64,000 bases of DNA from Candidatus Nomurabacteria bacterium (GCA_028286485.1 JAQBRM010000027.1:10632-74631); one strand, 5' to 3'. Positions 2,298-64,000 are shown, numbered from the stretch's first letter. Made by a program: numbers and translations. The notes: generated by a model from the sequence alone, not told the origin.

Positions 2298-3545
2298 TTA
2301 GAGCATCGCTTTCTTTCGGCGGTCTTTGTGGAAGGTCAGGGCGAAGCGGTGGGCTTCGGAGTTGGCGAGCAGGATGGCGAATTTATGGGTTTCGATGATG
2401 GCTTGCGGACCGCTGATGAATTTGGGGCGGTGACGCTCGTCTTTGGTCACCGCAATAACGGGAATATCGAGCTGCAAATCCTTCAAGACCGTAGCCGCCG
2501 CATTGGTTTGAATGATATTGCCATCCACCACAATGACGGAAGGATACGGCCATTCGGTATGAGCCAGCCGGCGCACCAACACTTCGCGCAGCGCGCCGGC
2601 GTCATTGGCCGTATCAAATCCTCGAATGATGAATTTGCGATACTCGTTTTTATTGGAAGTGGAATTTTCTATGACCGTCATGACTCCAACCATTTGCTTG
2701 CCGGATAGGTGGGCAATATCATACGCTTCAATGCGAAATACCTGTTCCCCGCTGCTGCGCTCCAAGTCCCGCTTGATGAGCGAGATATCCTGGATGTGCT
2801 CCAACGCGAAAATTTTCTGCTTCAATTCATTGGCTTCTTCAAAGTGTTCCTGCTTGGCGGCCGCGGCCATTTCTTTTTTCAATCCTTGAATAAGCGAGCG
2901 CATTTTGCCCTGCAAGATGCATTTGATACGACCGACATTCTGGCGATACTTTTTCCCGGCTTCCGCATTTGAAACATCCGGCGCCAAGGCAATCTGCCGA
3001 TAGAAGGCCTCCTTGTCTTTCTGCGCCGAAGCACGATCCCGAAACGGAAAGATATGACGAATGATCTTCAACGCTTCGCGAATGCTCGGTCCGTTCGGAA
3101 ATGGCCCGAAGGCCGCATCGTATTTGCACTGATGCAAACCGAGTCGCGGCAATGTCACGGTCTTCGTCCTCCCATCAATATCCTTTTGTCGCACCAAAAT
3201 GATACGTGGGAAATCTTCTTTGGTGATAACCACGATATTAAAGCTCTTATCGTCTTTTTCCTTGGTGTTGTAGTAGGGCTTGTACTTCTTGATCAGGTTC
3301 GCTTCCAAGATCAACGCTTCCAACACAGTCAGTGTCGCTTCATAGGTAACCGTCGTTGCTTTGAATACCATATCGACGATATGCGCACCGCGCGTCTTTA
3401 TGACATCGGGCGCAAAATATGAGCGCACCCTGTCTCGCAGTGACGTGGCTTTGCCGATATAGAGGATCTTGCCGTCACTATCCTTCCAAAAATACACCCC
3501 CGGTTCCGCCGGTAATTCCAATTTATCCAACTCTTGACGAATCAT
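2298..3545 (-). CDS. uvrC: excinuclease ABC subunit C, short form lacking the C-terminal (HhH)2 domain
   Basis: GIY-YIG N-terminus PGVYFWKDSDGKILYIGKATSLRDRVRSYF, UVR motif (EEANELKQKIFALEHI) and a C-terminal RNaseH-like endonuclease region. 415 aa. Confidence 0.85.
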   Translation of the reverse strand: MIRQELDKLELPAEPGVYFWKDSDGKILYIGKATSLRDRVRSYFAPDVIKTRGAHIVDMVFKATTVTYEATLTVLEALILEANLIKKYKPYYNTKEKDDKSFNIVVITKEDFPRIILVRQKDIDGRTKTVTLPRLGLHQCKYDAAFGPFPNGPSIREALKIIRHIFPFRDRASAQKDKEAFYRQIALAPDVSNAEAGKKYRQNVGRIKCILQGKMRSLIQGLKKEMAAAAKQEHFEEANELKQKIFALEHIQDISLIKRDLERSSGEQVFRIEAYDIAHLSGKQMVGVMTVIENSTSNKNEYRKFIIRGFDTANDAGALREVLVRRLAHTEWPYPSVIVVDGNIIQTNAAATVLKDLQLDIPVIAVTKDERHRPKFISGPQAIIETHKFAILLANSEAHRFALTFHKDRRKKAML

Positions 3546-7584: not shown

Positions 7585-9642
7585 CTAGGGATTGATGTAT
7601 GTTTTCTCGCGGAGGACTTTGATTTCATCGCGCAGGATGGCGGCGGTTTCGAAGTCGAGCAGTTTGACGGATTCTTTCATTTCGGACTCTTTGATGGCGA
7701 TCAGTTTTTCAATCGGATTCTTTTTTCCTCGCTTGCCTTTGCCATCTTTTTCCAATTGCGCAAACAATGCAATATCAAGGGCCAGCTCGGCATTGACGGC
7801 TTTGCTGTGTGCACTCTCCATGCCCTGCGTGATGTCCAGAATTTTCTTTTGAATGGTCATCGGCGTAATGCCATGCTCTTTGTTATAGGCCAGCTGAATA
7901 TTGCGACGACGTGTGGTCTCGCCAATGGCGCGCTCCATGGAGCCGGTCATGTTGTCGGCATAGAGAATGACACGGCCGTTGGAATTACGAGCGGCACGAC
8001 CGATAGTCTGAATGAGTGACACTTCACTGCGCAGGAATCCTTCCTTGTCCGCATCCAAGATACCGATCAACGTGACCTCCGGCATATCCAATCCTTCACG
8101 AAGCAGGTTCACACCGATCAGAATATCGAACTCCCCTCTGCGAAAACTGGTAATGATCTTGATACGATCGATCGTTTTGATATCGCTGTGAATGTACGCC
8201 ACTTTGATTTTCTTTTCTTTGACGTAGTCGGTCAGATCTTCTGCCATGCGCTTCGTCAATGTCGTAACCAAGACACGTCCGCCTTTGGCAATTTCCTTTT
8301 CGGACTCGCTGATCAGATCGTGTATTTGCCCCAAGTACTCGCCATTTTCCAAAATAGGCTTCACTTCCACCATCGGGTCCACCAGACCGGTCGGTCGGAT
8401 AATTTGCTCCACCACTTTGGTGGAATGCTCATGCTCGTATTTTCCGGGTGTAGCAGAGACAAAAATAGTCTGGCCGATGCGGTCTTTGAATTCCTCAAAC
8501 TTCAGCGGTCTGTTATCCTTGGCACTCGGCAATCGAAAGCCGAATTCCACCAATGTCTGCTTGCGTGAGGCGTCCCCCGCATACATACCTTGCAGCTGCG
8601 GCAATGTCACATGCGACTCATCAACGAATAGCATGAAGTCCGGGCTGCCATCGGCTTTGTGCGGGAAATACGACAACAATGTTTCAGGTGGTTCGCCTGC
8701 CATTTTGCCTGACATGTGCCGAGAGTAATTCTCAATACCGGAACAGTAGCCAACCTCACGGATCATGGCGAGGTCATACGTCGTGCGACGCTTGATACGC
8801 TCCGCTTCCAAAAGCTTTCCTTCCAATTCAAAATGCTTCAGCTGCTCATTGAGCTCATGCTGAATATCGGCAATAGCGCGATTCTTCTCGTCTTCATTGG
8901 TGATGAAGTGTTTGGCCGGGAAAATAAAAACAGTTTCTTCTTCCGACAAAATACGCGCTGAGACCGGATCGATCTTCAAGATGCTTTTCACGGTCGTACC
9001 GGAAAATTCCACCATGTATTGAATAGTGTCTGAGACAGGCATGATCTCCACCTTGTTGCCCAACGCGCGAAATTGCCCTGATGACAGGTCAGCGTTGGTA
9101 CGAGAAAAGTGAATACTGACTAAACGCTCCATAGCTTCAGTGCGGGACAAGGTCATGCCTTTTTCTATTTTGAAATTTTTCTTCTCATATTCTACCGGAC
9201 TACCGAGACCGTAAATACATGACACTGATGCCACAATGATCACGTCCTTGCGCGTCAGCAATGACTGCGTGGTAGCGTGACGCAAACGATCAATCTCCTT
9301 GTTGATCTGCGCGTCTTTTTCAATGTACGTATCAGTGACGGGCATGTAGGCTTCTGGTTGGTAGTAGTCGTAGTATGAGACGAAGTAGTGCACGGCATTA
9401 TTGGGAAAAAATTCGGCAAACTCGCTGGCCAGCTGTGCCGCCAGTGTTTTGTTGTGGGCAATGACCAGCGTCGGTTTCTGGATATCGGCGATGATATTGG
9501 CCATGGTAAATGTCTTGCCGGTGCCCGTAGCACCCAGCAAGGTCTGCATCTGCTCGCCCTTTTTCAGCCCTGCCAATAAGCCTTTTATGGCTTTAGGCTG
9601 GTCTCCGGCCGGTTGATAGTGGTTGGAAAGCTCGAATTTCAT
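7585..9642 (-). CDS. uvrB: excinuclease ABC subunit B
   Basis: UvrB helicase motifs GATGTGKTFTMANIIA and DESHVTLPQ, with a C-terminal UVR motif. 685 aa. Confidence 0.95.
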   Translation of the reverse strand: MKFELSNHYQPAGDQPKAIKGLLAGLKKGEQMQTLLGATGTGKTFTMANIIADIQKPTLVIAHNKTLAAQLASEFAEFFPNNAVHYFVSYYDYYQPEAYMPVTDTYIEKDAQINKEIDRLRHATTQSLLTRKDVIIVASVSCIYGLGSPVEYEKKNFKIEKGMTLSRTEAMERLVSIHFSRTNADLSSGQFRALGNKVEIMPVSDTIQYMVEFSGTTVKSILKIDPVSARILSEEETVFIFPAKHFITNEDEKNRAIADIQHELNEQLKHFELEGKLLEAERIKRRTTYDLAMIREVGYCSGIENYSRHMSGKMAGEPPETLLSYFPHKADGSPDFMLFVDESHVTLPQLQGMYAGDASRKQTLVEFGFRLPSAKDNRPLKFEEFKDRIGQTIFVSATPGKYEHEHSTKVVEQIIRPTGLVDPMVEVKPILENGEYLGQIHDLISESEKEIAKGGRVLVTTLTKRMAEDLTDYVKEKKIKVAYIHSDIKTIDRIKIITSFRRGEFDILIGVNLLREGLDMPEVTLIGILDADKEGFLRSEVSLIQTIGRAARNSNGRVILYADNMTGSMERAIGETTRRRNIQLAYNKEHGITPMTIQKKILDITQGMESAHSKAVNAELALDIALFAQLEKDGKGKRGKKNPIEKLIAIKESEMKESVKLLDFETAAILRDEIKVLREKTYINP

Positions 9643-11435: not shown

Positions 11436-11454
11436 GGCTCAGTTTTTTTAATTT

Positions 11455-11490
11455 CCACCACTCTACCCCTCCCTCTTGCCAAAGTCAATC
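11455..11490 (-). promoter_or_regulatory. sigma70-type promoter (minus sense TTGACT-N17-TAGAGT) with a conserved spacer, copy 1
   Basis: Minus-sense TTGACTTTGGCAAGAGGGAGGGGTAGAGT lies about 20 nt upstream of the 11435 start codon. A near-identical module sits upstream of the 61622 start. Confidence 0.4.
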
Positions 11491-40721: not shown

Positions 40722-41279
40722 TTATACAGTTTCGTCTGTATCGGGGGCTTTTTCATTAAAGGTCTCTATTGCGAGTTCTAATAATGATCGTTGATTGTTC
40801 AAATATGCAATGGGTGCATTTGTTCTTTTTAAAAGCACGGAGCAACGTTTTGCGGGAGCAGGAGAAAGTACCACTTCAATCTGGTTTCTTTCTTTTAGAA
40901 ACCTTACTAAAGGTGCATAGTCCCCATCACTAGCTACAAGTACTGCCCTATTAAGGTCTCCTTCATAAAAATCTTTCACTACATACATCAATAAATCGGA
41001 ATCGCAATTCCCTTTTGTTTTCCCTTTTTGATACAACACTTCTTTATATACAAGAAAAAAATTACTTTCTTCAAAATAGGCATATAAATTTTTGTATTTT
41101 TTAATCCGTCCTATGAAAATATATGCCCGTTCGACTTTATATTTTTCCTTAAGCCAAATTCGAAATCTTTTATAGTCAAGTTTCCATCCTAAACTTCTGA
41201 GAGCTTGATCGAGGTTCGCGGCATCTATGTACGCAATATTAACCTTTTTATCTTCTTTGTTCGCTGAAACGATTTCCAT
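40722..41279 (-). CDS. NYN-domain (LabA-like, PIN-fold) protein
   Basis: IAYIDAANL...LVASDGDYAPLV acidic motifs typical of the NYN/LabA family. Sits in an AT-rich islet. Confidence 0.65.
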   Translation of the reverse strand: MEIVSANKEDKKVNIAYIDAANLDQALRSLGWKLDYKRFRIWLKEKYKVERAYIFIGRIKKYKNLYAYFEESNFFLVYKEVLYQKGKTKGNCDSDLLMYVVKDFYEGDLNRAVLVASDGDYAPLVRFLKERNQIEVVLSPAPAKRCSVLLKRTNAPIAYLNNQRSLLELAIETFNEKAPDTDETV

Positions 41280-45487: not shown

Positions 45488-46381
45488 TTACTGAGGGAGA
45501 AATTTGAAACCCTGCATGATACTGTTGAGATCATTATGAACCTGTACCGAATTATAAGCACTGACCCCCATGCTTGGGTCAAAATTTGCCAATACGACAT
45601 AGTGAATAGTGTATTCAATGGCATAACACTGACCGTTACGCACCGTACGATAACTGGTGGTTTCATATCGATTGCCCGCACCCGCATCAGTGGAGACAAA
45701 GGTGGTATACGGTACGCCATTAATGGTAGTAGCGGATTTAGTTACGCCGTTACCGCTGATATCGTTCAAACAATTTGTAACGGCCTTGGGATCACTGGAA
45801 GTACCGACGGTGAACTTGGCATCACCGAAATTTGTTTTCGGCTGATAACTTTGCGGTACATTCACGGTGGCTAAAACAAGTCCCAATGTGCCATCACTAT
45901 TGGCTTTCCAATCTTGTGTGTAGCCAATGCCGCCGCCCGCCAAGCTGAAAGCTTGAGGGTACGTAAAGGTAAATGTCTTGCCCTGATCGGTGAAGGATTT
46001 CAAACCGTTAGTAGCAGTACCGGCGGTGCCGGTCAGACAATTATTATAGGTGGTGGCAGTACCCTCTTTCAAAAATGCTTGGTCGCCTTTATTAATAAAT
46101 AATATGGTCCCTTGCTGGTACTGTGCGCCATCCGCGGCAATAATTTGAGGCAATGTAAGGTGACGCCCGTCAGAAAGAGTCAGATTTACACTACCATCAG
46201 AAAAGCTTGCGGTGATAGTACTGCCGCTATCACAGGTAAACAATGCGGTGGCAGTCACGGGCTGAGTAACCGGTGGAATCGCTGCCGGAATCGGAGTCGA
46301 CCCTTTATGCACAAAGCTGTACCCTACGATGAGCACCAATACCAATAATACGATATAAAATACCATTCTTTTAAATGTCAT
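45488..46381 (-). CDS. secreted/membrane-anchored protein with an N-terminal MliC-like (lysozyme-inhibitor fold) domain and an unknown C-terminal domain
   Basis: N-terminal TM helix. ALFTCDSGSTITASFSDGSVNLTLSDGRHLTLPQIIAADGAQYQ resembles the MliC family. The remainder is G/T-rich with no match. Confidence 0.45.
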   Translation of the reverse strand: MTFKRMVFYIVLLVLVLIVGYSFVHKGSTPIPAAIPPVTQPVTATALFTCDSGSTITASFSDGSVNLTLSDGRHLTLPQIIAADGAQYQQGTILFINKGDQAFLKEGTATTYNNCLTGTAGTATNGLKSFTDQGKTFTFTYPQAFSLAGGGIGYTQDWKANSDGTLGLVLATVNVPQSYQPKTNFGDAKFTVGTSSDPKAVTNCLNDISGNGVTKSATTINGVPYTTFVSTDAGAGNRYETTSYRTVRNGQCYAIEYTIHYVVLANFDPSMGVSAYNSVQVHNDLNSIMQGFKFLPQ

Positions 46382-46414
46382 ACATTCAGTATACGCCCCT
46401 CTTTACAGATAGCA

Positions 46415-47142
46415 AAATAAATGGGGACAGGCCCCTTTTTAGTTTTTCTTTAACGGTCATATGTAATGATAGAGAAATGCCAAGACAACCAAGAAATGAT
46501 ACTGGTAATCGAATCTATCATGTAATTAATCGAGCAAATGCGCGGCTTAAAATATTTGAAAGTGACTCAGATTATGAGCTTTTTGAGAATTTATTAATGA
46601 AAGCCCTGAGTCGTTTTTCCATAAAACTATATGCATATACCAATATGCCCAATCATTTCCATTTAGTGCTTTATTCTGAAAAACCTGCTGAGGTTTCAAA
46701 ATTCATGCACTGGTTAAGCGGTGCTTTTACCCAACATTGGCATACTCGACATGCCACCATGGGAAGCGGTCATCTATTTCAAGGCCGGTACAAATCATTT
46801 CCTATTCAAAATGGAAACCACTTACTGCAAGTATTGTTATATGTTGAACGAAATGCAGTTCGTGCAAAATTAGTTAAAAGAGCGGAAGAATGGAGATGGT
46901 GTAGTGCGTGGATAAGAAAATACGGAAATGAAAAGCAAAAGAAAATGCTTTCAGAATGGCCTATTGATGTGCCCAAAGATTATTTGAATGTTTTAAATAA
47001 AACCGATGATGAAAATATTTTAAAAGACATTAGATTCTCTATTACAAAAAGTGTTTCTATTGGGTCAGAGGGAAAAAGACCGCGAGGGCGACCTAGAAAG
47101 AAATAAAGATATTCTAAAAAGGGGCCTGTCCCCATTTATTTA
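46415..47142. mobile_element. REP–RAYT–REP unit: IS200-like Y1 (HuH) transposase gene flanked by perfect 28-bp inverted REP-like termini
   Basis: Left end aaataaatggggacaggcccctttttag. Right end ctaaaaaggggcctgtccccatttattt is its exact reverse complement. Each end contains a GGGGaCAGGCCCC hairpin. The interior is AT-rich. Confidence 0.7.
46477..47106 (+). CDS. REP-associated tyrosine transposase (RAYT; IS200/IS605 TnpA-like Y1 HuH transposase)
   Basis: HuH motif MPNHFHLVLY and a catalytic Tyr context LLYVERNAVRAKL (Y1_Tnp family pattern). The start MPRQPRND lies internal to the 46375 track ORF, which reads through the left REP. Confidence 0.8.
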   Translation: MPRQPRNDTGNRIYHVINRANARLKIFESDSDYELFENLLMKALSRFSIKLYAYTNMPNHFHLVLYSEKPAEVSKFMHWLSGAFTQHWHTRHATMGSGHLFQGRYKSFPIQNGNHLLQVLLYVERNAVRAKLVKRAEEWRWCSAWIRKYGNEKQKKMLSEWPIDVPKDYLNVLNKTDDENILKDIRFSITKSVSIGSEGKRPRGRPRKK

Positions 47143-56467: not shown

Positions 56468-56614
56468 AAAAAATACTATTAGCTAGTATTTTTATTAATA
56501 CTAATGTGACAAGCAAAAACTTTCATTTAAATCCACTACCGTTGATTTTTTGCCCAAAAAACGCTATTCTACATCCGCACTACATTGTGTCTTTTGCCCA
56601 CTGGGTAAAACGAT

Positions 56615-56688
56615 TGTGGAATCGTCTAATGGTAGGACAACGGTTTCTGGTACCGTTTATCTTGGTTCGAGTCCAGGTTCCACAGCCA
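56615..56688 (+). tRNA. tRNA-Gln (anticodon CUG), CCA encoded
   Basis: Acceptor stem TGTGGAA/TTCCACA, D-arm GTCT-AATGGTA-GGAC, anticodon stem ACGGT/ACCGT with loop TT-CTG-GT, T-arm CTTGG-TTCGAGT-CCAGG, discriminator G and CCA. A hairpin at about 56692..56710 follows. Confidence 0.85.
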
Positions 56689-56826
56689 AATTTCGCTTTT
56701 TGCAAGCGAAGCGTTCCATACCAAAAAGGCAAGAAATTTGCTTAGCGGATGTTTCGCTAGAAACACAAGAAGATTTCCGAGATAGGTCATCCTGCACGAG
56801 TTGCGTCGCTGTAACGAGAAATCTTT

Positions 56827-57612
56827 TTACTGCTGTACTGTAACAACAGGATACATGGTTCCTGTATCAGGCGAATCGTAGTACTGATAACTAAGCAATT
56901 TAGCTTCTGTAATTTTTTCAGTAAAAACTATACCCTCCAAAGGTTGGTTGTTGCTGCTTGGCTTGAAAATGGCGATTTCATTGTTGTAATTGGAAGCGAC
57001 GTATGAAGGTTGGTCGTCACAGGTAGTGATGTCTCGACTGGCTGAGCAAAGATCTTCTTGATATTTTTGATGTCCCACAGTGCCGTTCTGTGTATATTTA
57101 ATTGTGTAGATCACATGGTCACCAATATTGTGCGGGGTTGGGAAAGCAGAAACCTGCTTATTATTTGAATAGAATACAGCACTCACTATCTTTCCAATAG
57201 CAGGGTTATCGGTACTATTGAATACAGCTAGTATCCCACTAGTATAGGAAGGTTCATCTGTAAAATAAATTGTTTTACAGTGCAAGGTAATGCAATCGTT
57301 CACGGCATTTTGATTGTAGTCTTGAATGCCAACATTGGAAATTTTTCGCTCGGTGTATTGAAACGTTTGTCTTGTCGAGAGATTTTTAAGGATTGCTTTC
57401 ACATACTGATCAACCTCTTCGCCTCGGGCATTGACCATATTTTTTTGATCCACTATTGGACTTGGGGCTTGGTTATTTTCTTGTTGAGGATTGCTTTGTA
57501 CAGGAGTGGTTGGAGTAGTTCTTAAAGGATGATTATTCTGTGTGACGATGTAGCCAAGAATGCCAACTATTATAACGAGTAGACAAATGATGACCGTTCG
57601 GTTTTTGTTCAT
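56827..57612 (-). CDS. hypothetical membrane-anchored/secreted protein (AT-rich orphan)
   Basis: 261 aa. N-terminal TM helix, Pro/Gln-rich linker, Cys pairs. No recognised domain. Confidence 0.4.
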   Translation of the reverse strand: MNKNRTVIICLLVIIVGILGYIVTQNNHPLRTTPTTPVQSNPQQENNQAPSPIVDQKNMVNARGEEVDQYVKAILKNLSTRQTFQYTERKISNVGIQDYNQNAVNDCITLHCKTIYFTDEPSYTSGILAVFNSTDNPAIGKIVSAVFYSNNKQVSAFPTPHNIGDHVIYTIKYTQNGTVGHQKYQEDLCSASRDITTCDDQPSYVASNYNNEIAIFKPSSNNQPLEGIVFTEKITEAKLLSYQYYDSPDTGTMYPVVTVQQ

Positions 57613-57665
57613 AGATCATTTATACCTTGAAAGAACGGCTTTGTAAATGCGCTGAAGTTGCGTCA

Positions 57666-57721
57666 GTGCAATATCTGAAGGTTTTGCATAGAACGCGATT
57701 TCTAGGAAAACTGCTATAATT
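57666..57721 (+). promoter_or_regulatory. conserved 5' leader/promoter module, copy A (extended -10 TGcTATAAT plus upstream conserved box)
   Basis: GCAaTATCTGAaGGtTTTgCATAGAaCG...TTCTAG..CTGcTATAATT. A copy differing at only a few positions lies at about 58011..58067, upstream of the next gene. Confidence 0.45.
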
Positions 57722-57729
57722 AAACTTAT

Positions 57730-57984
57730 ATGGAAAAAGAACAGTCAGGACAAAAAAGATGGAGTCGTCAAAAATTTTATCGTGTTGTCTTTACGGTCGC
57801 GGTTATTATTGTTATTGTCTCCGCATTTCTCCCTTGCTCTCTCTCAAAATATGGCTGTGCTTACGGCGGGGGTGGGGACGTCCTGCTCGATGGTGCGCTA
57901 GGGGCAATAGCTGCTTCTCTTTGTCTTATCATTGTCGCCGTTATTTACGAGATTAACACGCGCCGCGTTTCAAAGAATAAATAA
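57730..57984 (+). CDS. small membrane protein (two TM helices, Gly-rich loop), hypothetical
   Basis: 84 aa. VVFTVAVIIVIVSAF and ALGAIAASLCLIIVAVIY helices. Confidence 0.4.
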   Translation: MEKEQSGQKRWSRQKFYRVVFTVAVIIVIVSAFLPCSLSKYGCAYGGGGDVLLDGALGAIAASLCLIIVAVIYEINTRRVSKNK

Positions 57985-58010
57985 TTTTTTGACCTACTCG
58001 AGTCGCCTCG

Positions 58011-58067
58011 TTGCACTATCTGAGGATTTTACATAGAGCGACTAATATTCTAGAACTGATATAATTC
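58011..58067 (+). promoter_or_regulatory. conserved 5' leader/promoter module, copy B
   Basis: GCAcTATCTGAgGAtTTTaCATAGAgCG...ATTCTAG..CTGaTATAATT, immediately upstream of the nucleotidyltransferase gene. Confidence 0.45.
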
Positions 58068-58074
58068 AAAGCAC

Positions 58075-58872
58075 ATGGAAACCCCTCACCCCATCAAAAA
58101 CATAGGGTCATATCTCCCTGTCGATGACCAAGGCTTCATTGTAAACTCAACTTCAATTGAGAAGATCCAGCCTGAATGGCTGCCTGCGGTTGAGGAAGTA
58201 AGGGAAGCATACGTGCAGCATTTTGGAGACAATTTGCACAGTGTCTATATCAGAGGATCAGTTGCTAAGGGTTGGGCGATAGAACATATTTCAGACATAG
58301 ACTCTTTCGCGGTTATCTCTCTTGCTTATGAAAAGATAGACATGTTATGGTCAGATCTCTTTAAACAAGAACTTATCTCTGAGTACCCATTTGTCACAGG
58401 GGTTGAAATTGGCGCTATCCCGCTAGATGAACTCAAAGATCACAAAGGTGATCAGATAATGATCAAGACTCAAGCTATCTGTATTTACGGCAAGAATCTT
58501 GCGGATGAAATTCCCGCAATGAAGCCCGGCATGGAAACCGCTCAACATATACACTTCATCAAGGGTGAGATTATCCGAACCCGGGAATGGCTTAACGGTG
58601 AGCACTCTGCGGAAGAAATCATGAGAAAATGCACTTGGATAATGAAGCGTATCCTACGCTCTGGTTTTGAACTGGTGATGGAGCGATCGCAGAAATACAC
58701 CCGTGACCTCTATCCTTGCTATGAGGGATTCTCGGAATACTATCCTGAGCAGAAAGACAATATGTATAAAGTATTACAACTGGCGATAAATCCCACTGAA
58801 GACACGGCTGAAATAGAAAAAGTTTTAAGTGATATTGGGGCTTGGATTATTAAGGAAATTGAGAATAACTAA
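58075..58872 (+). CDS. nucleotidyltransferase-domain protein, AadA/ANT(3'')-like architecture (N-terminal pol-beta NTase plus C-terminal helical domain)
   Basis: The NTase motif IRGSVAKGWAIEHISDIDSFAV parallels the AadA motif GS..G......SDID. 265 aa. AT-rich. Confidence 0.65.
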   Translation: METPHPIKNIGSYLPVDDQGFIVNSTSIEKIQPEWLPAVEEVREAYVQHFGDNLHSVYIRGSVAKGWAIEHISDIDSFAVISLAYEKIDMLWSDLFKQELISEYPFVTGVEIGAIPLDELKDHKGDQIMIKTQAICIYGKNLADEIPAMKPGMETAQHIHFIKGEIIRTREWLNGEHSAEEIMRKCTWIMKRILRSGFELVMERSQKYTRDLYPCYEGFSEYYPEQKDNMYKVLQLAINPTEDTAEIEKVLSDIGAWIIKEIENN

Positions 58873-58895
58873 GCGCTCGAGCTACGTCGTTCAAA

Positions 58896-58935
58896 TAAAA
58901 AAGATCACACACGTTTTATAGTATGTGATCTTTGC
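58896..58935. terminator. bidirectional terminator between convergent genes
   Basis: aagatcaca-cacgttttatagta-tgtgatctt, a 9-bp stem. Confidence 0.5.
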
Positions 58936-58941
58936 TAAAGA

Positions 58942-59742
58942 TTAGTCGAATATCGCATGAATTTCCCATTGCTTGCCGATATGATCGATGATGTTCGAGG
59001 GGAAGATGAGGTTGTTGGTTTTCTCATCCCTATCAGCACACCACGATCTTTCTTGGATCGTTTCAATCTGCGGTGATGCAAGAATCTCTTTCAATGAATC
59101 CCCGCCGCGATAGTGATGGTTAACGTATAATCCCTGGACGATTGGCGGCTCATCTTTTATTTGCTCAAAAAAGACAAGCACGCACACGGCCTTTCCCGGG
59201 TTAGAGAAAACCAAGCTTCGCTCAGATGTTCTCATTCCGATAGCTACATGTGCATGATCGGCGGCCCAACATTTTAAATGGTCGATGTCTTTCCCAAACG
59301 CAATAAGCACTCGCCGGGACTCATCGCGGACTTCCATCCATAGTTTGCCAAGTTGGTTACGTCCGTCTTTATTTTTTCCCCAACCCCAGAATGAGTCTTG
59401 CCACGAATTTTCAATCAACGGCCGGTTTCCGGAATCAATAAGCTTTTTCCTGACGTATGGATGCTGGGTGGCTTTCTCCCGCAAAATTTCTTTCATTATT
59501 GCAACTTTTACCTCGTGCCAATCAGCACGCTGGCTAAGCTCGTATTGACGGGCGATTTTTTTCGCATCATGCGCGGAGCGGGCATTCTTGATCTTCTCCT
59601 GAATTTCCGGATAATCGGGAAATTTTTCGTAGTGATATGCATGCTCAGAAGTCATAAAATCATATCCCTTCCAATTCAACATAAATGCAGAAAAGTTGGA
59701 AAATGGGTAATATTCGTGTTCGTAAAAGAATATAGGTTCCAT
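58942..59742 (-). CDS. NADAR-domain (YbiA/DUF1768-like) protein fused to an uncharacterised C-terminal domain of about 120 aa
   Basis: The N-terminus FFYEHEYYPFSNFSAF...SEHAYHYEKF...DSFWGWGKNKDGRNQLGKLWMEVR matches NADAR family motifs. The C-terminal half has no recognisable motif. Confidence 0.65.
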   Translation of the reverse strand: MEPIFFYEHEYYPFSNFSAFMLNWKGYDFMTSEHAYHYEKFPDYPEIQEKIKNARSAHDAKKIARQYELSQRADWHEVKVAIMKEILREKATQHPYVRKKLIDSGNRPLIENSWQDSFWGWGKNKDGRNQLGKLWMEVRDESRRVLIAFGKDIDHLKCWAADHAHVAIGMRTSERSLVFSNPGKAVCVLVFFEQIKDEPPIVQGLYVNHHYRGGDSLKEILASPQIETIQERSWCADRDEKTNNLIFPSNIIDHIGKQWEIHAIFD

Positions 59743-59912
59743 AGTGTTAAGTTTTCCTCATACTACGTTTTAAGAGGGATTTGTCAACAAATAGTTAAGT
59801 CACGCGCATTCCGAACACGGATGTTGTTTCTAATAATCTGATAAAGAAAAAATAAAGAATTATGAAGGTTTTTCACTTTGGATAAACCGGGAAACGCTTT
59901 ATACTATAGGTC

Positions 59913-60788
59913 ATGGAACAAGAAACTTTGACTGTTAAGTTTGATGGGCAAGAACATCAGGTGGATGTTCAAACTTTTGCGTATTCTGTTTTAAATTTTG
60001 CCACTGTTATCAAGGAAGCGAATAAAAAAGTAACGGGAAGCCCTATTGAAATAAATATTAAGGCGCCGGAAAAGGGCAGCGTGCTCGTTGATTTGGTTAC
60101 TAAAGTGACGCAAAGCCCCACCCTCTTACATGGATTACATACGGGAGCAGATCTTGTTACTGTCGTTGCGGGACTATATGGTTTCCATAAATTTATTAGC
60201 GGGAGGAAAATAAAAGAAACAAAAAAAGAAGATGGCGGCATCACGATTCATTTGGAGGACGGTTCGACAATGACGGTAGCGGAAAATGTTTACAACATTT
60301 ACGTGACTACGCCCGCGATATCAAATGGCATTTCTCAACATTTTTCTGCGCTTAGTGATGATCCGGCTGTTTCAAAGTTTGAAGTCATAAGAAAAGAAAA
60401 AAGGATTATTGAAGTTGATAAGGAAGATTATGATCGTCTTTCTATCAAGCAGCAAATTGAGACTGAGAACGCGAGAAGGATTGTTGAATCCGCCGAACTT
60501 CATGTTTATAAGATTGTTTTTGACAAGACAGATAGAAAATGGGAATTCTATTATAAGGGCAATAGAATATCAGCCAATATAACAGATGAAGACTTCTTCA
60601 AGATGATCGACGGAGGAGAATCATTTGCCAAAGGAGACCTATTGCGTGTTGATTTGCAAATTAATCAGAGCATGGATGAGTCAGTCGGCATTTACGTAAA
60701 CCAATCATATCAAGTATTAAAAGTCCACGAACACATAAAACGTTTAGAACAGGCACAACTACCTTTTAACAAAACTCTGGACGACTGA
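59913..60788 (+). CDS. hypothetical protein (291 aa, no recognisable domain)
   Basis: Long ORF with a plausible promoter (TATACTATA) and an RBS. Charged, beta-rich. AT-rich. Confidence 0.4.
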   Translation: MEQETLTVKFDGQEHQVDVQTFAYSVLNFATVIKEANKKVTGSPIEINIKAPEKGSVLVDLVTKVTQSPTLLHGLHTGADLVTVVAGLYGFHKFISGRKIKETKKEDGGITIHLEDGSTMTVAENVYNIYVTTPAISNGISQHFSALSDDPAVSKFEVIRKEKRIIEVDKEDYDRLSIKQQIETENARRIVESAELHVYKIVFDKTDRKWEFYYKGNRISANITDEDFFKMIDGGESFAKGDLLRVDLQINQSMDESVGIYVNQSYQVLKVHEHIKRLEQAQLPFNKTLDD

Positions 60789-60795
60789 CAACCCG

Positions 60796-61200
60796 TTATT
60801 GCACTTTCCGTAACGGCAGCAATGCCCGGATACGCGGATCGAGAATATAGAGCGTTCCCCACAGCAGAATGCCCACATAGACGGGAAAGAGGACGTTGCC
60901 AAAGAGCGGCAGACCGGCACGCAGGTTGGTCAGCACCGCTCCTCCGAGATCTCCCGTAAGCAGCAGGGCGCCGAGCACTGCGGTGCGCGGCAGGCAATAC
61001 AGCACCAGGCAAACCAATTCGATAATGCCAATCGGCACTGACAAGCCAAGCGGAAAGCCGAGCTGTATGAATGCCGCGGCAACAGGCGGAATAACCAGCA
61101 CATGGATAATGCCGTCAAATGCCAGAAACAGCACTAACAGCATCATGATGATTCTCCACACCCATAAACACCCTTTCGAAATTCCCAAATCTTGATTCAT
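60796..61200 (-). CDS. DoxX-like (DoxX_2) family membrane protein
   Basis: Four TM helices. GALLLTGDLGGAVLTNLRAGLPLFGNVLFPVYVGILLWGTLYIL resembles DoxX-like family 2. Confidence 0.5.
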   Translation of the reverse strand: MNQDLGISKGCLWVWRIIMMLLVLFLAFDGIIHVLVIPPVAAAFIQLGFPLGLSVPIGIIELVCLVLYCLPRTAVLGALLLTGDLGGAVLTNLRAGLPLFGNVLFPVYVGILLWGTLYILDPRIRALLPLRKVQ

Positions 61201-61300
61201 AAAAAATATTTAAGTTTGTATGATTATATTGTACCTTATACCCAGCCATGGTTCCAGGTACCTTTTCCTTATTTTATCCAAAAAAGACTAGTGGGCATTC

Positions 61301-61338
61301 AAAACAAAATAAAAAGCCCCGCTGAAAAGCAGCGTGGC
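61301..61338. terminator. terminator for the minus-strand gene 61362..61622
   Basis: gccccgctg-aaaa-gcagcgtggc hairpin, followed in the minus sense by a U-run. Confidence 0.45.
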
Positions 61339-61361
61339 TTCATCCGCAGTACGTCTTAGAA

Positions 61362-61622
61362 TTACTGCAAAAAATAGTTAGTGATTAAAAGAGCCCCTAT
61401 CCAGGTCACACTGAGATACAACACCTTCCGGCCCAATCCCACTGATGTCGAAAAGCAGCAGAGTATCGCTCCTACCGTGAGGAAAAAATAGTCGAGGTTA
61501 CTATAGAGCGAGGTAAGGCCTGCGTGGTTGAATTTAAATTCAAAGCCGGCGGAAATACCTGACATGCCCAAAAATACCATTGCAAGGATCAACAATCCGT
61601 TTTTTTCAATCAATTTTTTCAT
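61362..61622 (-). CDS. small membrane protein (three TM helices), hypothetical
   Basis: 86 aa. Driven by duplicated promoter module copy 2. Confidence 0.4.
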   Translation of the reverse strand: MKKLIEKNGLLILAMVFLGMSGISAGFEFKFNHAGLTSLYSNLDYFFLTVGAILCCFSTSVGLGRKVLYLSVTWIGALLITNYFLQ

Positions 61623-61640
61623 TGTCTGTGATTTTTCAGC

Positions 61641-61669
61641 ACTTTACTCTCCCCTCTTGCTAAAGTCAA
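61641..61669 (-). promoter_or_regulatory. sigma70-type promoter (minus sense TTGACT-N17-TAAAGT) with a conserved spacer, copy 2
   Basis: Minus-sense TTGACTTTAGCAAGAGGGGAGAGTAAAGT. The spacer is near-identical to the copy at 11455..11490. Confidence 0.4.
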
Positions 61670-61928
61670 TCAAGGAGGGTAGTATTCGAACAGTTCTTTA
61701 TCCAAGGGTGGCATTACTAGACGAGACTGGCCAATCCAATAGTGGTGAGCATCCTTGGGCACCATATACTGAACGAGACTCCTGAAAAAACAGGTGATCG
61801 AGATCCTGCACTACTACGGTTTGCAGGATTTTTTATTTACCCAGACTATAGTTCTGATTTCAGACTCAATACATAACTCTAATATTATTTTTGAAACCTT
61901 TCCCCTCAATCTTTGCTATAATTACCGC

Positions 61929-62153
61929 ATGGTTAAATTCAACGAGGTTACGTGGTATTCGAAATTAGCGGCAATCATCTTTTTCATCGGTGTTATACCA
62001 GTGCTGGCATTTTATATCGGCACACAGTACCAACAATCAAAAGATGCCCTGGCGAATGACGCGATTATACCCGTGTATCCCAAACTGACTCCCCATGCTC
62101 GCGCGATAGATGGTACAAAAGTTGAGACAACAATGTATATACCGAAGAACTAG
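61929..62153 (+). CDS. small membrane-anchored protein, hypothetical
   Basis: Internal start MVKFNEVTWYSKLAAIIFFIGVIPVLAFYIG of the 61794 track ORF. One TM helix. Confidence 0.3.
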   Translation: MVKFNEVTWYSKLAAIIFFIGVIPVLAFYIGTQYQQSKDALANDAIIPVYPKLTPHARAIDGTKVETTMYIPKN

Positions 62154-62159
62154 TGTACC

Positions 62160-62774
62160 TTATGCCTTTGCAGCCGATTCTATTTTCGCAATGGCTGCGT
62201 TGAATCCTATACTCGTTAGTGATGATCCCGATACCCTACCCACATGCACGCTGGCAATGTCCTTGCCGACAACGTATTGCTTATATCCTGAAACGAACAT
62301 GGTTTGATAGCGCGCGGAAGTACGATCACCGGGCTTTGGTACCACCGATACGGCAGTGACTACATCACTGCTCAGTGTGACCGTCACCGCAATCTGATCT
62401 TGGCCACCGGGAGAATTGTATGAACCGGTCGCTGAATAAGTGCCGTCATTGTAGACATTGGTTGCTACCGCTGTAGGTGTTGGAGTGGAGATTACGGTCT
62501 TTTTAGGAGTGACAGTAATAGGCTGAGAAGTGGTCGTGGTTGAGGTAGTAGTCGTTGTATCAGGTGCGGGAAAAATACTGCCAAAGGCTGCGGGGCTGGG
62601 CGCGGGAATGATGGGAGTTGGCGTGGGAATTGGCACAGTAGTCGTAGTATCAGAACCCACTGGCTGAGCCGGCGGGTTGAATGTTGAGGCAAACACGCCA
62701 ACTGCGGCGGCAATCACCACTCCCAGTGCTGCCAATCCCGCTCCTATGGCGTTTTGGGATTTTTTCGGTTCCAT
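62160..62774 (-). CDS. membrane-anchored FMN-binding domain protein
   Basis: N-terminal TM helix, Thr/Pro-rich linker, C-terminal FMN_bind-like YNDGTYSATGSYNSPGGQDQIAVTVTL...VSGSSLTSIGFNAAIAKI. Confidence 0.7.
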   Translation of the reverse strand: MEPKKSQNAIGAGLAALGVVIAAAVGVFASTFNPPAQPVGSDTTTTVPIPTPTPIIPAPSPAAFGSIFPAPDTTTTTSTTTTSQPITVTPKKTVISTPTPTAVATNVYNDGTYSATGSYNSPGGQDQIAVTVTLSSDVVTAVSVVPKPGDRTSARYQTMFVSGYKQYVVGKDIASVHVGRVSGSSLTSIGFNAAIAKIESAAKA

Positions 62775-62852
62775 GTGTTTATTATGCCATGTATTTATGA
62801 AGATGGCGTGAATTCACCCCCTCTTCATGTAAATTAGGTATACTTGAGGCAT

Positions 62853-63320
62853 ATGAAAAACTTTTCATCAATCCTCCTCCGTATTGCCATTGCAGCCGTA
62901 TTCATCTGGTTCGGCATTCAGCAACTCATTGATCCGACTTCATGGGTCGGCTTTCTGCCAACGTGGGTCAATACTCTTCCTATCAGTCAGACCGTATTCA
63001 TTTATTTGAATGGCGTGTTTGAACTGATATTCGGCACCGCCTTGCTGCTCGGATTTTATTCCAGAATCGCCGCCTTATTGCTCGGGCTTCATTTATTGGG
63101 TATCACTCAGACGGTCGGCTACAGTGCCATCGGCGTGCGGGACTTCGGACTGGCATTGTCAGCTCTTTCGATTGCGGCATCGGGCCCCAGTCCATTTTCA
63201 TTGGATATGGCATTCCGGAAAGACGAACCGGTAGTGACAACTACTTATACGCCTACAAGTTATACGCCTACAAGACCAATACAATCCCCCGAGCCCGTTG
63301 TCGAACACAAGGTTATCTAA
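62853..63320 (+). CDS. DoxX family membrane protein
   Basis: MKNFSSILLRIAIAAVFIWFGIQQLIDPTSW is the DoxX N-terminal pattern. Four TM helices, then a Thr/Pro-rich tail. Confidence 0.7.
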   Translation: MKNFSSILLRIAIAAVFIWFGIQQLIDPTSWVGFLPTWVNTLPISQTVFIYLNGVFELIFGTALLLGFYSRIAALLLGLHLLGITQTVGYSAIGVRDFGLALSALSIAASGPSPFSLDMAFRKDEPVVTTTYTPTSYTPTRPIQSPEPVVEHKVI

Positions 63321-63321
63321 T

Positions 63322-63798
63322 ATGAAAAACCGCTTCATCATAATTTTTCTTGCCACTTTCATACTCACTATTTTTGCAGTCCCTCATCCGCCACAACTCT
63401 TCGCCAAAATTATCCATACAAAGAGTGCTGTTCATAGCAAAACCGCCACTACCAAGAAAAAAATTGCTTCGACAAAGAAAGTTTCTAAAGCCAATGCGAA
63501 GAAAAAAATATCATCACCAAAAGTTGCCGCTGTTGCTGTCCCAGTAGCCGCTCCAACCTCCACCGCTTCCTATACACTGACAACGGTCGGCCTACACCAT
63601 TCGGCCGCAAGCTGCTGGACCACCATCAGCGGGAACATCTATGATCTCACACCATGGATTAAGCAACATTCCGGCAGCCGACAACCCGTGCTTTCATTAT
63701 GTGGTACGGATAGTACCGCTGCGTTCAACACCGAATATGCCGGCAGGGCAAAGCCCACGGAACAGCTTAAAGCGTTTTTGATCGGGAAACTGCAGTAA
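63322..63798 (+). CDS. membrane-anchored cytochrome b5-like heme-binding domain protein
   Basis: The C-terminal YTLTTVGLHHSAASCWTTISGNIYDLTPWIKQHSGS...LCGTDSTAAF matches the cyt-b5 HPGG-region pattern (variant HSGS). N-terminal TM helix and a Lys-rich linker. Confidence 0.65.
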   Translation: MKNRFIIIFLATFILTIFAVPHPPQLFAKIIHTKSAVHSKTATTKKKIASTKKVSKANAKKKISSPKVAAVAVPVAAPTSTASYTLTTVGLHHSAASCWTTISGNIYDLTPWIKQHSGSRQPVLSLCGTDSTAAFNTEYAGRAKPTEQLKAFLIGKLQ

Positions 63799-63917
63799 CA
63801 ATCCGATAATCTTCCGCAGCCGAGATAGTCGACTTTCATCAATATTCAAAATTAAGAAAAACCACCTGCTCCGATTATATGGGGGTGGTTTTTAGATGAA
63901 CCAATATTGGTTCTGAT

Positions 63918-64000
63918 CAGTTTTCTAAAAAGGCTTTGATTTTTTCAGCAAGCGCTTTTTCAAACTTTGCTTGTTCGCGCTCAGAACCTTCTTTATCAGT
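63918..64000 (-). CDS. partial CDS (3' end only), hypothetical
   Basis: Minus-strand frame ...TDKEGSEREQAKFEKALAEKIKAFLEN* ends at about 63918. The gene continues beyond the window. Confidence 0.3.

Follow-up and report, generated by a model that had tools for sequence, protein, structure and literature searches.

NADAR proteins are hydrolases whose chemistry is the removal of N-glycosidically linked ADP-ribose. Hydrolysis of G-ADPr is common to the four NADAR families, and enzymes of the YbiA type, which in vitro work on DNA as well as RNA, accept C-ADPr too (PMC12945103). The NADAR hydrolase domain occurs in; 1) DarTG1, which pairs the toxin DarT1 with the NADAR antitoxin DarG1; 2) orphan NADARs of phages (AdfN), encoded without a cognate toxin, orphan NADARs being able to neutralise DarT1 (PMC11825919); and, 3) DS-32, a validated system in which the partner of NADAR is not DarT but a PRTase (bioRxiv 10.1101/2025.01.08.631726). 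Other fusions in the NADAR clade have known domains added N-terminally (DUF1653, DUF2238, DUF4326). The aminoglycoside nucleotidyltransferases AadA or ANT(3'')(9), AAD(9) and ANT(4') are proteins of ~260 aa that join a Pol-beta domain with G-S and DxD motifs to a C-terminal helical domain. The PDC families, among them PDC-S42, are candidates found embedded in BREX, DISARM and type I R-M loci (bioRxiv 10.1101/2024.01.29.577857). Finally, tRNA-associated genomic islands have a tRNA neighbour, deviant composition and presence or absence between related genomes.

We have analysed a 64,000-nucleotide stretch of DNA (the window) from a Candidatus Nomurabacteria genome, in which an AadA-like gene, a NADAR gene and a PDC-S42 gene follow a tRNA-Gln gene. 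We propose that the region is probably a hypervariable patch of the chromosome, in which accessory cassettes independent of one another surround a nucleotidyltransferase (NTase) conserved in the lineage, and not one coordinated system. The patch would run from just after tRNA-Gln to ~63.9 kb, past the right-hand end at 60788 given in a first-pass annotation, with small self-contained cassettes gained, lost and swapped around the NTase and with genes that act independently. This proposal is built on the observed anatomy, family memberships, presence and absence in relatives and absence of linkage, whereas the biochemical activities of the patch genes are those that we infer. The features concerned are as follows.

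56615-56688, + strand: tRNA-Gln (anticodon CTG; ARAGORN; Rfam RF00005, 56.3 bits), left landmark of the variable patch
56718-56773: block A, a short conserved intergenic block, 95% identical to positions 733-788 of the relative L103, with neighbours that differ between genomes
56774-58050: strain-specific segment of 1277 bp carrying the 261-aa and 84-aa genes
56827-57612, - strand: 261-aa anchored or secreted orphan
57730-57984, + strand: 84-aa two-TM protein
58052-58872, + strand: two-domain, lineage-conserved NTase (gene 58075-58872, 265 aa), preceded by a promoter-like site of its own at 58052-58065
58866-63920: replaced segment of 5055 bp, in place of which L103 has 1039 bp with one 314-aa orphan
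58900-58933: hairpin terminator where the NTase and NADAR genes converge (13-bp stem, 8-nt loop, T-run after it on the - strand, A-run before it on the + strand)
58945-59316, - strand: 124-aa orphan extension at the C-terminus of the NADAR protein (residues 143-266)
59317-59742, - strand: YbiA-type NADAR domain, residues 1-142 of a 266-aa protein (PF08719, E 3.7e-30, 105.8 bits)
59760-59787, - strand: promoter-like site of the NADAR gene, TTGACA-16-TAGTAT, a consensus match only (10/12 positions), within a 170-bp divergent intergenic region
59913-60788, + strand: 291-aa LAPAL_fam / PDC-S42 / phrog_3243 protein, a single-gene candidate phage-defence or prophage accessory gene

The five ORFs of the first-pass annotation are all present, in the places and orientations it gave, and an independent Logan contig of 3801 bp (L001) is 100% identical to window positions 57150-60950, so that the junctions between the NTase, NADAR and 291-aa genes are not a binning artefact. 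The sequence had been described as AT-richer directly after tRNA-Gln, and a windowed G+C analysis bears this out: the G+C of 56689-60788 is 0.409, the lowest among ~600 sliding 4.1-kb stretches (mean 0.469, the window-wide value; sd 0.020) and 3 SD below the mean, a drop greater than expected by chance. The drop is uneven, with GC3 of 0.37 in the 261-aa gene, 0.39 in the 84-aa gene, 0.45 in the NTase, 0.49 in the NADAR gene and 0.36, the lowest of the set, in the 291-aa gene, against 0.70 and 0.62 in the flanking GT2-GtrA and DoxX_2 genes.

A near relative (L103), compared through one 5.4-kb metagenome contig, is collinear with the window in three blocks of 93-96% nucleotide identity, namely block A, block B (58051-58865, 93%) and block C (63921-64000, 96%), the last of which stops at the window end after 80 bp. 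Blocks A and B, 1277 bp apart in the window, are 17 bp apart in L103, which lacks the 261-aa and 84-aa genes; between blocks B and C it lacks the whole replaced segment, which in the window holds the NADAR, LAPAL, DoxX_2, 86-aa, 119-aa, 204-aa, DoxX and 166-aa genes. The NTase alone out of the five genes is retained. A more distant relative (L003) keeps tRNA-Gln(CTG), 2.4 kb upstream of its NTase homologue, and the genes between and after the two differ from those of the window. In contig L105 block A extends over 56683-56823 at 91.5% identity and is followed by a different 284-aa membrane-protein gene, a third arrangement at this position; the block has no Rfam match and an ordinary folding energy (z = -0.89). 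These comparisons uphold the description of the region as a whole as accessory and variable. As regards the NTase, the one gene that related genomes keep, the accompanying statement that the genes lack a housekeeping role is an assumption.

The tRNA neighbour, the deviant composition and the presence/absence pattern are shared with tRNA-associated islands, and the placement beside a tRNA gene had been noted as typical of horizontally acquired islands. However, no integrase was found among ten genes scanned with Pfam from 56.8 to 63.3 kb and no att-like repeat or direct repeat of the tRNA 3' end was detected, findings that do not sustain a classical tRNA-targeted island. Moreover, L103 has no tRNA upstream of block A, and instead of one inserted block there are several small independent indels or replacements, which flank a conserved gene. 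It could also be argued that the NADAR and 291-aa genes are what is left of a decayed prophage or integrative element, whose surviving cargo would be a counter-defence NADAR gene of phage type and a LAPAL gene of 'structural' or accessory nature, with no concerted role or with none. We hold this to be distinctly unlikely: the same ten genes include no terminase, capsid or tail gene either, att-like repeats are lacking, the replaced segment also carries ordinary DoxX-type membrane genes of native composition, the ORFs are intact with the NADAR residues aligned to E48, D130 and W133 of YbiA retained, and close CPR (candidate phyla radiation) homologues of the LAPAL protein lie in R-M/recombinase islets and not in prophages. 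A remnant would be consistent with the strong PHROG matches of both proteins (phrog_1017, E 1.5e-38, for the NADAR domain; phrog_3243, E 3.9e-46, for the 291-aa protein), with the occurrence of LAPAL relatives in cultured temperate phages as well as 24 IMG/VR contigs, with the low GC3 of the 291-aa gene and with the absence of the segment from L103.

Within the proposed patch the NTase is the fixed element, the L103 gene being 93% identical to it in nucleotides and the L003 protein 71% in amino acids, with a promoter-like motif kept in both. Its 277 full-length homologues come mostly from CPR genomes and share the invariant residues G20, R60-G61-S62, D74, D76, Q133, G139, R195, E199, R210-D211 and Y223. 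As homologues often have a tRNA gene beside them or lie in a mobile context (tRNA-Asn with a serine recombinase in L004; tRNA-Ser in L007), the role of conserved anchor may hold within this lineage only. An AlphaFold2 model (pLDDT 96.4) has its best full-length PDB matches in AadA, AAD(9) and ANT(4') (Foldseek, E 1e-6, TM 0.53, 12-15% identity; 12% to AadA itself), and the AadA/ANT(3'') architecture first ascribed to the protein thus holds at the level of the predicted fold. The NTase matches neither DUF4111 nor any NCBIfam/AMR ANT model; on the modelled structure it is a two-domain protein of AadA/ANT-type fold, yet not a recognisable member of a resistance family. It would comprise an N-terminal Pol-beta-type NTase domain and a C-terminal helical substrate-binding domain and, to judge by fold and conserved G-S/DxD/E motifs, most likely uses an NTP as donor to attach AMP (or another NMP) to a small-molecule hydroxyl.

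That this small molecule is an antibiotic, the NTase being a true aminoglycoside or lincosamide resistance enzyme and the sole meaningful feature amid neutral accessory DNA, seems to us unlikely. The full-length structural matches do include ANT(3'')(9) and LinB besides the enzymes named above, the NTase profile matches the kanamycin NTase N-domain (E 0.005), the catalytic GS/DxD/E111 set is conserved, and the window reportedly comes from a Nomurabacteria MAG, for which environmental antibiotic exposure is an assumption. Against this, TM values to such enzymes are only 0.45-0.54 at the low identities given, the sequence profile misses AadA even at E<=10, the C-domain residues R195, E199, R210-D211 and Y223 are distinct to the NTase family, and that family is broadly conserved in, and largely confined to, CPR at 40-70% identity, so that an endogenous substrate fits equally well as a drug. 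The first-pass annotation had itself set a resistance enzyme with unrelated neighbours against its own reading; this comes close to what we find, in that the genes are unrelated, while the NTase is not recognisable as a resistance enzyme.

That own reading had the NTase, the NADAR fusion and the 291-aa protein as a possible single module, and the evidence runs against it. The three genes are convergent or divergent, have promoter-like sites of their own and, with the terminator between NTase and NADAR, are separate transcription units as judged from the sequence. Across 45 homologous loci (8 NTase, 34 LAPAL and 3 NADAR; about 520 kb), in each of which the other two genes were sought within 5-10 kb, co-occurrence was 0/45 and the genomic contexts were varied. 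In addition, no ADP-ribosyltransferase was found among the Pfam-scanned neighbours of the NADAR gene. In its narrower form the module would have the NTase modify a nucleotide, nucleic acid or protein and the NADAR fusion reverse or complement this, as a nucleotide-modification or toxin-antitoxin/defence system. In its favour are the adjacency of the two genes, the role of MNT-type NTases in HEPN-MNT toxin-antitoxin systems and the presence of MNT structures among the weaker fold and sequence matches, but the full-length fold matches small-molecule ANT enzymes and not 120-aa MNT antitoxins or CD-NTases; similarly, weak PADLOC matches of the NTase to PDC-S09 and CBASS cyclase models span only the generic GS/DxD motif (residues 37-87). 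Since, furthermore, the genes converge on a terminator, NADAR is missing from 8 of 8 related NTase loci, L103 with its 93% identity included, and removal of ADP-ribose does not, from general knowledge of the families, reverse nucleotidylylation, we give this scheme almost no chance of being correct.

The NADAR protein belongs to the YbiA type: it passes the TIGR02464 cut-off (104.6 bits, cut-off 73.7), the PDB entry closest to it in sequence is E. coli YbiA (2b3w, E 1.4e-19), to which it is nearer than to the solved PnNADAR (8bau, 1.4e-5), and E48, D130 and W133 of YbiA align with E33, D116 and W119. The >1700 homologues at 60-70% identity are mostly stand-alone proteins of ~150 aa. To our knowledge the host's group is generally without riboflavin synthesis, and this CPR lineage is not expected to make riboflavin. 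The gene is bacterial and chromosomal, unlike the phage-borne AdfN, which it resembles in having no cognate toxin beside it: no DarT/ART or PRTase gene, as in DarTG1 or DS-32, was found among the Pfam-scanned neighbours. Published family biochemistry suggests that the protein is a solitary N-glycoside hydrolase which most likely frees guanine or cytosine bases, in DNA or RNA, of ADP-ribose, and would be an 'orphan antitoxin' that, standing alone, counters incoming toxins of the ADP-ribosylating kind. That YbiA-type NADARs are viewed as housekeeping in other bacteria (PMC11825919) counts against the patch of accessory cassettes that we favour.

The unassigned C-terminal domain of about 120 aa noted at first is a 124-aa region, a feature that sets the protein apart from other YbiA-type NADARs. 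It has no Pfam match at E<=10, and an exhaustive phmmer search of 1.84 billion representative proteins found only itself at domain length, besides a 25-residue stretch of a repeat protein (P0319, E 5e-5). One weakly similar fusion (P0002, 255 aa) has residues in common with it: H155, C158-W159, D162-H163, H165, G169, R171 and a terminal F-D. The tail would be a lineage-specific addition with a possible His/Cys metal site, and it may couple the protein functionally to other genes.

The 291-aa protein, first called an orphan, proves to belong to a described family of ~290-aa proteins, with full-length matches well above threshold to LAPAL_fam (NCBIfam NF053583, 206.7 bits, cut-off 60), PADLOC PDC-S42 (E 7e-37) and phrog_3243. 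It has 78 homologues. The close CPR homologues adjoin type I/IIG/MmeI-like R-M genes and recombinases, one (in L013) being embedded beside type I/IIG R-M genes as are the founding members of PDC-S42, whereas the window copy has no adjoining R-M, BREX or DISARM genes and neighbours NADAR and DoxX_2. In phages, homologues occupy accessory-gene positions, beside integrases or between lysis genes and int, and some lie, together with an anti-repressor, as an insertion between the terminase and portal genes. The NCBI label is 'putative phage structural protein' and the PADLOC label that of a defence candidate; the genomic contexts favour an accessory gene. We suggest that the protein is a single-gene accessory cassette, of a family that travels with R-M systems, recombinases and temperate phages, and that its role is most likely phage exclusion. 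A C-terminal beta-barrel in the AlphaFold2 model (pLDDT 81.8), weakly like an OB fold (Foldseek E >= 0.03, TM ~0.48 relative to target), may serve to bind nucleic acid.

Could this PDC-S42 protein be paired with the divergently encoded NADAR fusion, in defence or in the manner of a toxin-antitoxin system, with the NADAR enzyme restraining or resetting its neighbour's activity like a partner-swapped DS-32? The genes are adjacent and divergent around a common 170-bp control region, both lie within the segment missing from L103, both proteins have PHROG relatives, and DS-32 is a precedent for a non-DarT partner. Nevertheless, NADAR was near 0 of 34 LAPAL loci and LAPAL near 0 of 3 NADAR loci (within 5-10 kb), the definition of PDC-S42 is that of a single-gene candidate, the NADAR protein with its 92 bits falls short of the DS32_2 cut-off (240), the 291-aa protein has no transferase-like fold, and GC3 of 0.49 against 0.36 suggests separate origins. 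We therefore regard a pair as very improbable, and the independent cassettes of the proposed patch as the reading to retain for these genes.

The segment between block A and the NTase has no relatives among JGI metagenome contigs, and searches of Pfam, NCBIfam, PADLOC and PHROGs gave neither of its proteins a match that reached a family cut-off or E<0.001. The secreted orphan and small membrane protein described at first are recovered, as a 261-aa protein with an N-terminal hydrophobic anchor and no family match, and an 84-aa protein with two hydrophobic segments; both may be strain-specific envelope proteins. A promoter-like AAAACTGCTATAAT lies at 57707-57720, 10 nt ahead of the ATG of the 84-aa gene.

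The region at 56689-60788, lying 3' of tRNA-Gln, is a small hypervariable accessory patch, a genomic feature of an ordinary kind that is recorded here from a genome of the candidate phyla radiation (CPR). The source is a Candidatus Nomurabacteria metagenome-assembled genome (MAG), and the NADAR and 291-aa proteins of the patch are identical to entries JWM92_521 and JWM92_522 (84.7-kb contig). A Logan contig from an independent assembly matches the window at 100% identity over 57150-60950, which shows that the gene junctions in the window are real; the ends of that contig were also considered as population breakpoints but are uninformative in this respect, as both fall inside genes. The patch and its immediate borders are laid out as follows.

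56615-56688, tRNA-Gln(CTG), identified by ARAGORN and Rfam
56827-57612, minus strand, 261-aa gene downstream of tRNA-Gln
57730-57984, plus strand, 84-aa gene
58075-58872, plus strand, nucleotidyltransferase (NTase) of 265 aa
58942-59742, minus strand, NADAR fusion protein of 266 aa
59913-60788, plus strand, 291-aa gene
60796-61200, minus strand, DoxX_2 gene

The first-pass annotation had drawn attention to an AT-rich stretch after the tRNA, and this is borne out: G+C is 0.409 across 56689-60788 against 0.469 for the window, the lowest value among all 4.1-kb stretches and 3 SD below their mean. The signal is nevertheless uneven between genes, with a GC3 of 0.37 for the 261-aa gene, 0.39 for the 84-aa gene, 0.45 for the NTase, 0.49 for the NADAR gene and 0.36 for the 291-aa gene (flanking genes: GT2-GtrA, 0.70; DoxX_2, 0.62), and the patch genes do not have the appearance of a single block that shares one origin. 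The 261-aa protein had no relatives in the metagenomes searched, and it and the 84-aa gene product are most likely strain-specific envelope proteins.

Comparison with relatives shows how the patch varies. The nearest of these, L103, is a 5.4-kb metagenome contig that shares three collinear blocks with the window.

Blocks shared by the window and L103
Block A, window 56718-56773, L103 733-788, 95% identity, intergenic
Block B, window 58051-58865, L103 806-1617, 93% identity, NTase with its promoter
Block C, window 63921-64000, L103 2657-2736, 96% identity, ended by the window edge

The interval between blocks A and B is 17 bp in L103 and 1277 bp in the window, where it carries the 261-aa and 84-aa genes. 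That between blocks B and C is 1039 bp in L103, with a single 314-aa orphan, and 5055 bp in the window, where it encodes the NADAR protein, the 291-aa protein, two DoxX-type proteins and four others. A more distant relative, L003, has 73-75% amino-acid identity to the window in the flanking genes and 71% in the NTase; tRNA-Gln(CTG) still precedes the NTase there, 2.4 kb away and in the same orientation, and all that lies between and after them is different. Taken together, the two comparisons identify the NTase as the conserved element and the remaining genes as strain-specific cassettes, so that a CPR genome, very small though it is, maintains a hot spot of single-gene cassette turnover between strains that are 93-96% identical. 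The right-hand limit originally proposed for the patch, 60788, does not hold, since variability reaches ~63.9 kb, although the stretch up to that point is indeed variable. When GTDB representatives were searched with GT2-GtrA, one relative was recovered (L020, 70% identity), the other 79 loci belonging to unrelated phyla; synteny with L020 stops just after the GT2-GtrA gene, and its contig ends 1.7 kb further on.

Block A is also found in a third contig, L105, where it is joined to yet another membrane-protein gene. As a segment of 56-141 bp after tRNA-Gln it is 91-98% conserved in the three contigs (window 56683-56823, L103 733-788, L105 958-1098), and as its neighbours on either side change from contig to contig, it looks like a recombination junction. 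We also considered block A as an RNA, but it has no Rfam match and its folding energy is ordinary.

The position of the patch had suggested a horizontally acquired, tRNA-adjacent island. Two properties of a tRNA-targeted integrative island are present, namely an aberrant composition and presence/absence polymorphism between relatives. However, no integrase, recombinase or transposase domain was found in the ten genes scanned with Pfam over 56.8-63.3 kb (a set that ends ahead of the 166-aa ORF at 63298-63798), and no direct repeat of the tRNA 3' end occurs within 56500-62500. A search for the classical island signature, direct repeats of the tRNA 3' end together with bounding inverted repeats, gave only short matches at chance level.

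It had also been proposed that the NTase, NADAR and 291-aa genes form a functional module, but the evidence speaks against this. The NTase gene converges on the NADAR gene, a terminator hairpin (13-bp stem) separating the two, and the NADAR and 291-aa genes are divergent, with a promoter-like site upstream of the NADAR gene. Moreover, when all proteins were searched by tblastn against the 45 loci of their homologues (8 NTase, 34 LAPAL-family, that is 291-aa-type, and 3 NADAR loci, ~520 kb), there was not one case of co-occurrence among the three. The record is thus corrected, as adjacency and low G+C in this patch do not make a system. Gene content, family assignments, variability and the absence of linkage are direct results; the enzymatic and defence activities proposed below are all inferred.

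The NTase belongs to a family of 277 full-length proteins, found mostly in Paceibacteria-type CPR genomes. In an alignment of 77 homologues, no variation is seen at R60-G61-S62, D74 and D76 and hardly any at E111, and thus the G-S motif and DxD carboxylates of a Pol-beta NTase are present; further invariant residues are G20, Q133, G139, R195, E199, R210-D211 and Y223. The Pfam model NTP_transf_2 matches 62 of the 77 family members, the window NTase itself scoring only 15.8 bits against a cut-off of 21. Searches with phmmer against the PDB gave no match, and nor did NCBIfam at E<=0.1. The family profile aligns to the GS...DxD region of KNTase, with the profile search of the PDB reaching the N-domain only, and AadA was not among its matches at E<=10. 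The AlphaFold2 (AF2) model, built from 77 sequences, has a pLDDT of 96.4, and with Foldseek it matches full-length PDB folds, the best being AadA, AAD(9), ANT(3'')(9), ANT(4') and, more weakly, LinB (E ~1e-6, TM 0.45-0.54, identity 12-15%). Among these, 5g4a_A gave E 1.1e-6 and a moderate TM of 0.53 over 274 aligned columns of 265/261 residues.

These full-length matches show that the AadA architecture assigned in the first-pass annotation was right at the level of the fold. In common with AadA/ANT(3'')(9), the NTase has an N-terminal Pol-beta domain and a C-terminal helical substrate-binding domain, and the two-domain fold can be superimposed on AadA. It differs in sequence membership, as neither the NTase nor any of the 77 family members has a Pfam match to DUF4111/PF13427 or ANT models, and the NTase has no NCBIfam/AMR ANT match; membership of the resistance families is therefore not supported. 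The NTase is most likely an ANT-like small-molecule nucleotidyltransferase, and this CPR-wide ANT-fold family, well modelled and with no assigned family, is a candidate for biochemistry.

Homologues of the NTase often lie 0.4-2.7 kb from a tRNA gene (Gln, Asn or Ser), as in L003 (5548-5619) and two further contigs, L004 (11497-11569) and L007 (7551-7637). That of L004 is part of an obvious mobile/defence islet, which also encodes an EcoRI-like methylase, GmrSD, a helicase and a serine recombinase. In L003 the NTase is directly followed by a methyltransferase (8838-9629) that matches part of the PADLOC profile mad2 (MADS) with E 1e-21. In several CPR contigs, DoxX-family membrane genes also recur near NTase and NADAR homologues (window 60796-61200 and 62844-63320; L007 7018-7449; L101, another such contig, 8554-8991), probably owing to the abundance of this family.

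The NADAR protein consists of a NADAR domain (residues 1-142) and a 124-aa tail. The domain scores 105.8 bits with PF08719 (gathering threshold 35.1) and 104.6 bits with TIGR02464 (cut-off 73.7), and is nearest to E. coli YbiA, 2b3w (E 1.4e-19), with a further NADAR-family structure, 8bau, at E 1.4e-5. Its E33, D116 and W119 align to chain positions 48, 130 and 133 of 2b3w, which we take to be the catalytic residues of YbiA. The profile scores, the closeness to YbiA and the conserved residues together assign the domain to the YbiA-type, which is among the four families of NADAR proteins. More than 1700 homologues are found at 60-70% identity, mostly stand-alone proteins of ~150 aa, and the two CPR contexts sampled are ordinary chromosomal neighbourhoods without a toxin gene. 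Members representing each of the four NADAR families strip ADP-ribose from guanine, and those of the YbiA-type do so from cytosine too, in DNA and RNA alike (PMC12945103).

Two known systems with NADAR proteins were compared. The Pfam scan of neighbours over 53.2-63.3 kb covered GH8, GT2-GtrA, DUF6496, NTase, LAPAL-family, DoxX_2, DoxX and unassigned small proteins other than a 181-aa and the 166-aa ORF. Among these scanned neighbours there is no ADP-ribosyltransferase, DarT1 included, and PADLOC gave no DarT match, so the adjacent DarT1 gene in an operon that defines DarTG1 was not found beside the NADAR protein. With regard to DS-32, the protein reaches 92.2 bits on NF053876 DS32_2, below the cut-off of 240, and no PRTase occurs among the same scanned neighbours.

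The tail (residues 143-266) has no Pfam match at E<=10, and an exhaustive HMMER search over 1.84 billion representatives found no other domain-length homologue. The sole other protein with a weakly similar tail is P0002, a 255-aa NADAR fusion protein, which has in common with it a His/Cys-rich cluster (H155, C158, H163 and H165); that the tail reading frame is kept in two diverged sequences argues that it is truly coding. The tail can thus be regarded as a true orphan domain fused to a YbiA-type NADAR. The protein is most likely a solitary YbiA-type de-ADP-ribosylase/N-glycosidase with a lineage-specific tail. A bolder proposal, to which we give little credence, is that NADAR and tail together form a new single-chain immunity/effector protein, with a parallel in which the ANT-fold NTases would be an unrecognised antibiotic-modifying class of ultra-small CPR episymbionts. 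On the first of these views, the tail, through its conserved H-x2-CW-x2-DH-x-H cluster, would sense or target, for example, an invading ADP-ribosylating toxin or modified nucleic acid, or might couple the hydrolase to the adjoining PDC-S42 protein (the 291-aa gene product), and CPR bacteria would have a defence module based on ADP-ribosylation of a kind not seen before. Immediately upstream of the start of the NADAR gene, 43 bp at 59749-59791 are 86% identical to L003 12847-12889, which lies upstream of an unrelated 176-aa gene; this may be a regulatory motif that the NADAR gene has in common with it.

The 291-aa protein had been described as an orphan, but proves to be a family member. It scores 206.7 bits with the NCBIfam profile NF053583 LAPAL_fam against a cut-off of 60 (residues 7-276 on profile positions 2-292 of 292), and matches the PADLOC profile PDC-S42 (PDLC05015) with E 7e-37 (1-285 on 1-300 of 302) and phrog_3243 with E 3.9e-46. 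PDCs are phage defence candidates that were found embedded in BREX, DISARM or type I restriction-modification (R-M) loci (bioRxiv 10.1101/2024.01.29.577857); no R-M, BREX or DISARM genes lie beside the 291-aa gene in this window. Close CPR homologues, at 68-86% identity, occur in contexts with R-M genes or recombinases. One (L013) directly follows type I-like restriction and methylase/specificity genes, another (L015) is near serine recombinases, and those of L016-L019 lie amid a serine recombinase, an MmeI-like enzyme, a tyrosine integrase and Dam-like methylases. Further afield, distant phage homologues are found at accessory-gene positions: that of Lactobacillus phage A2 is located between endolysin and integrase, that of Listeria phage vB_LmoS_188 adjoins an integrase and a "superinfection immunity" gene, that of a Vibrio element is ~780 bp from an integrase with two small genes between, and that of L126 adjoins an integrase; in L107 the homologue and an anti-repressor are inserted between terminase and portal.

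These contexts are more in keeping with a mobile accessory gene than with a structural protein, as NCBI labels it, and the PDC-S42/LAPAL family is now placed in Patescibacteria with contexts that favour an accessory or defence role. The AF2 model has a pLDDT of 81.8 and no significant PDB match, its conserved C-terminal barrel weakly recalling OB folds (SSB, HIN-200). Our search of the literature found no paper on PDC-S42 or the LAPAL motif and no published anti-phage test, and the protein is most likely a single-gene PDC-S42 defence candidate. As an aside on nomenclature, NF053583 is named "LAPAL motif-containing putative phage structural protein", which is at odds with the positions of the genes in phages (L010, L011, L107, L126) and with their location beside R-M genes in CPR chromosomes.

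Some other elements of the window are worth recording. A AAAACTGNTATAAT box stands 10 nt 5' of the ATG of both the NTase and the 84-aa gene, and that of the NTase is kept in two other genomes.

Positions of the AAAACTGNTATAAT box
Window 57707-57720 and 58052-58065
L103 ~806-820 and ~3295-3310
L003 ~7975-7990

This promoter-like sequence precedes the ATG of several genes by ~10 nt and persists between genomes whose proteins are 70% identical; such closeness to the ATG suggests leaderless or very short-leader mRNAs in the lineage. A repeated intergenic element ending in CCTCTTGCYAAAGTCAA occurs at window 11446-11488 and 61640-61669, two exact copies where 0.01 would be expected by chance, and again in L103 at 4887-4929.

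A single transposase-like gene was seen in the window, 10 kb from the patch at 46375-47106 on the plus strand; its 243-aa product contains a Y1 transposase domain of the IS200-like kind (PF01797, E 5e-16), its GC3 is very low at 0.28, and it may represent an IS200/IS605 or RAYT-type element. Equally deviant in GC3 (0.28) is a minus-strand gene at 40722-41279, whose 185-aa product carries an NYN domain (PF01936, E 3.5e-12); nucleases of the NYN type are known from validated defence candidates, HEC-09 among them.
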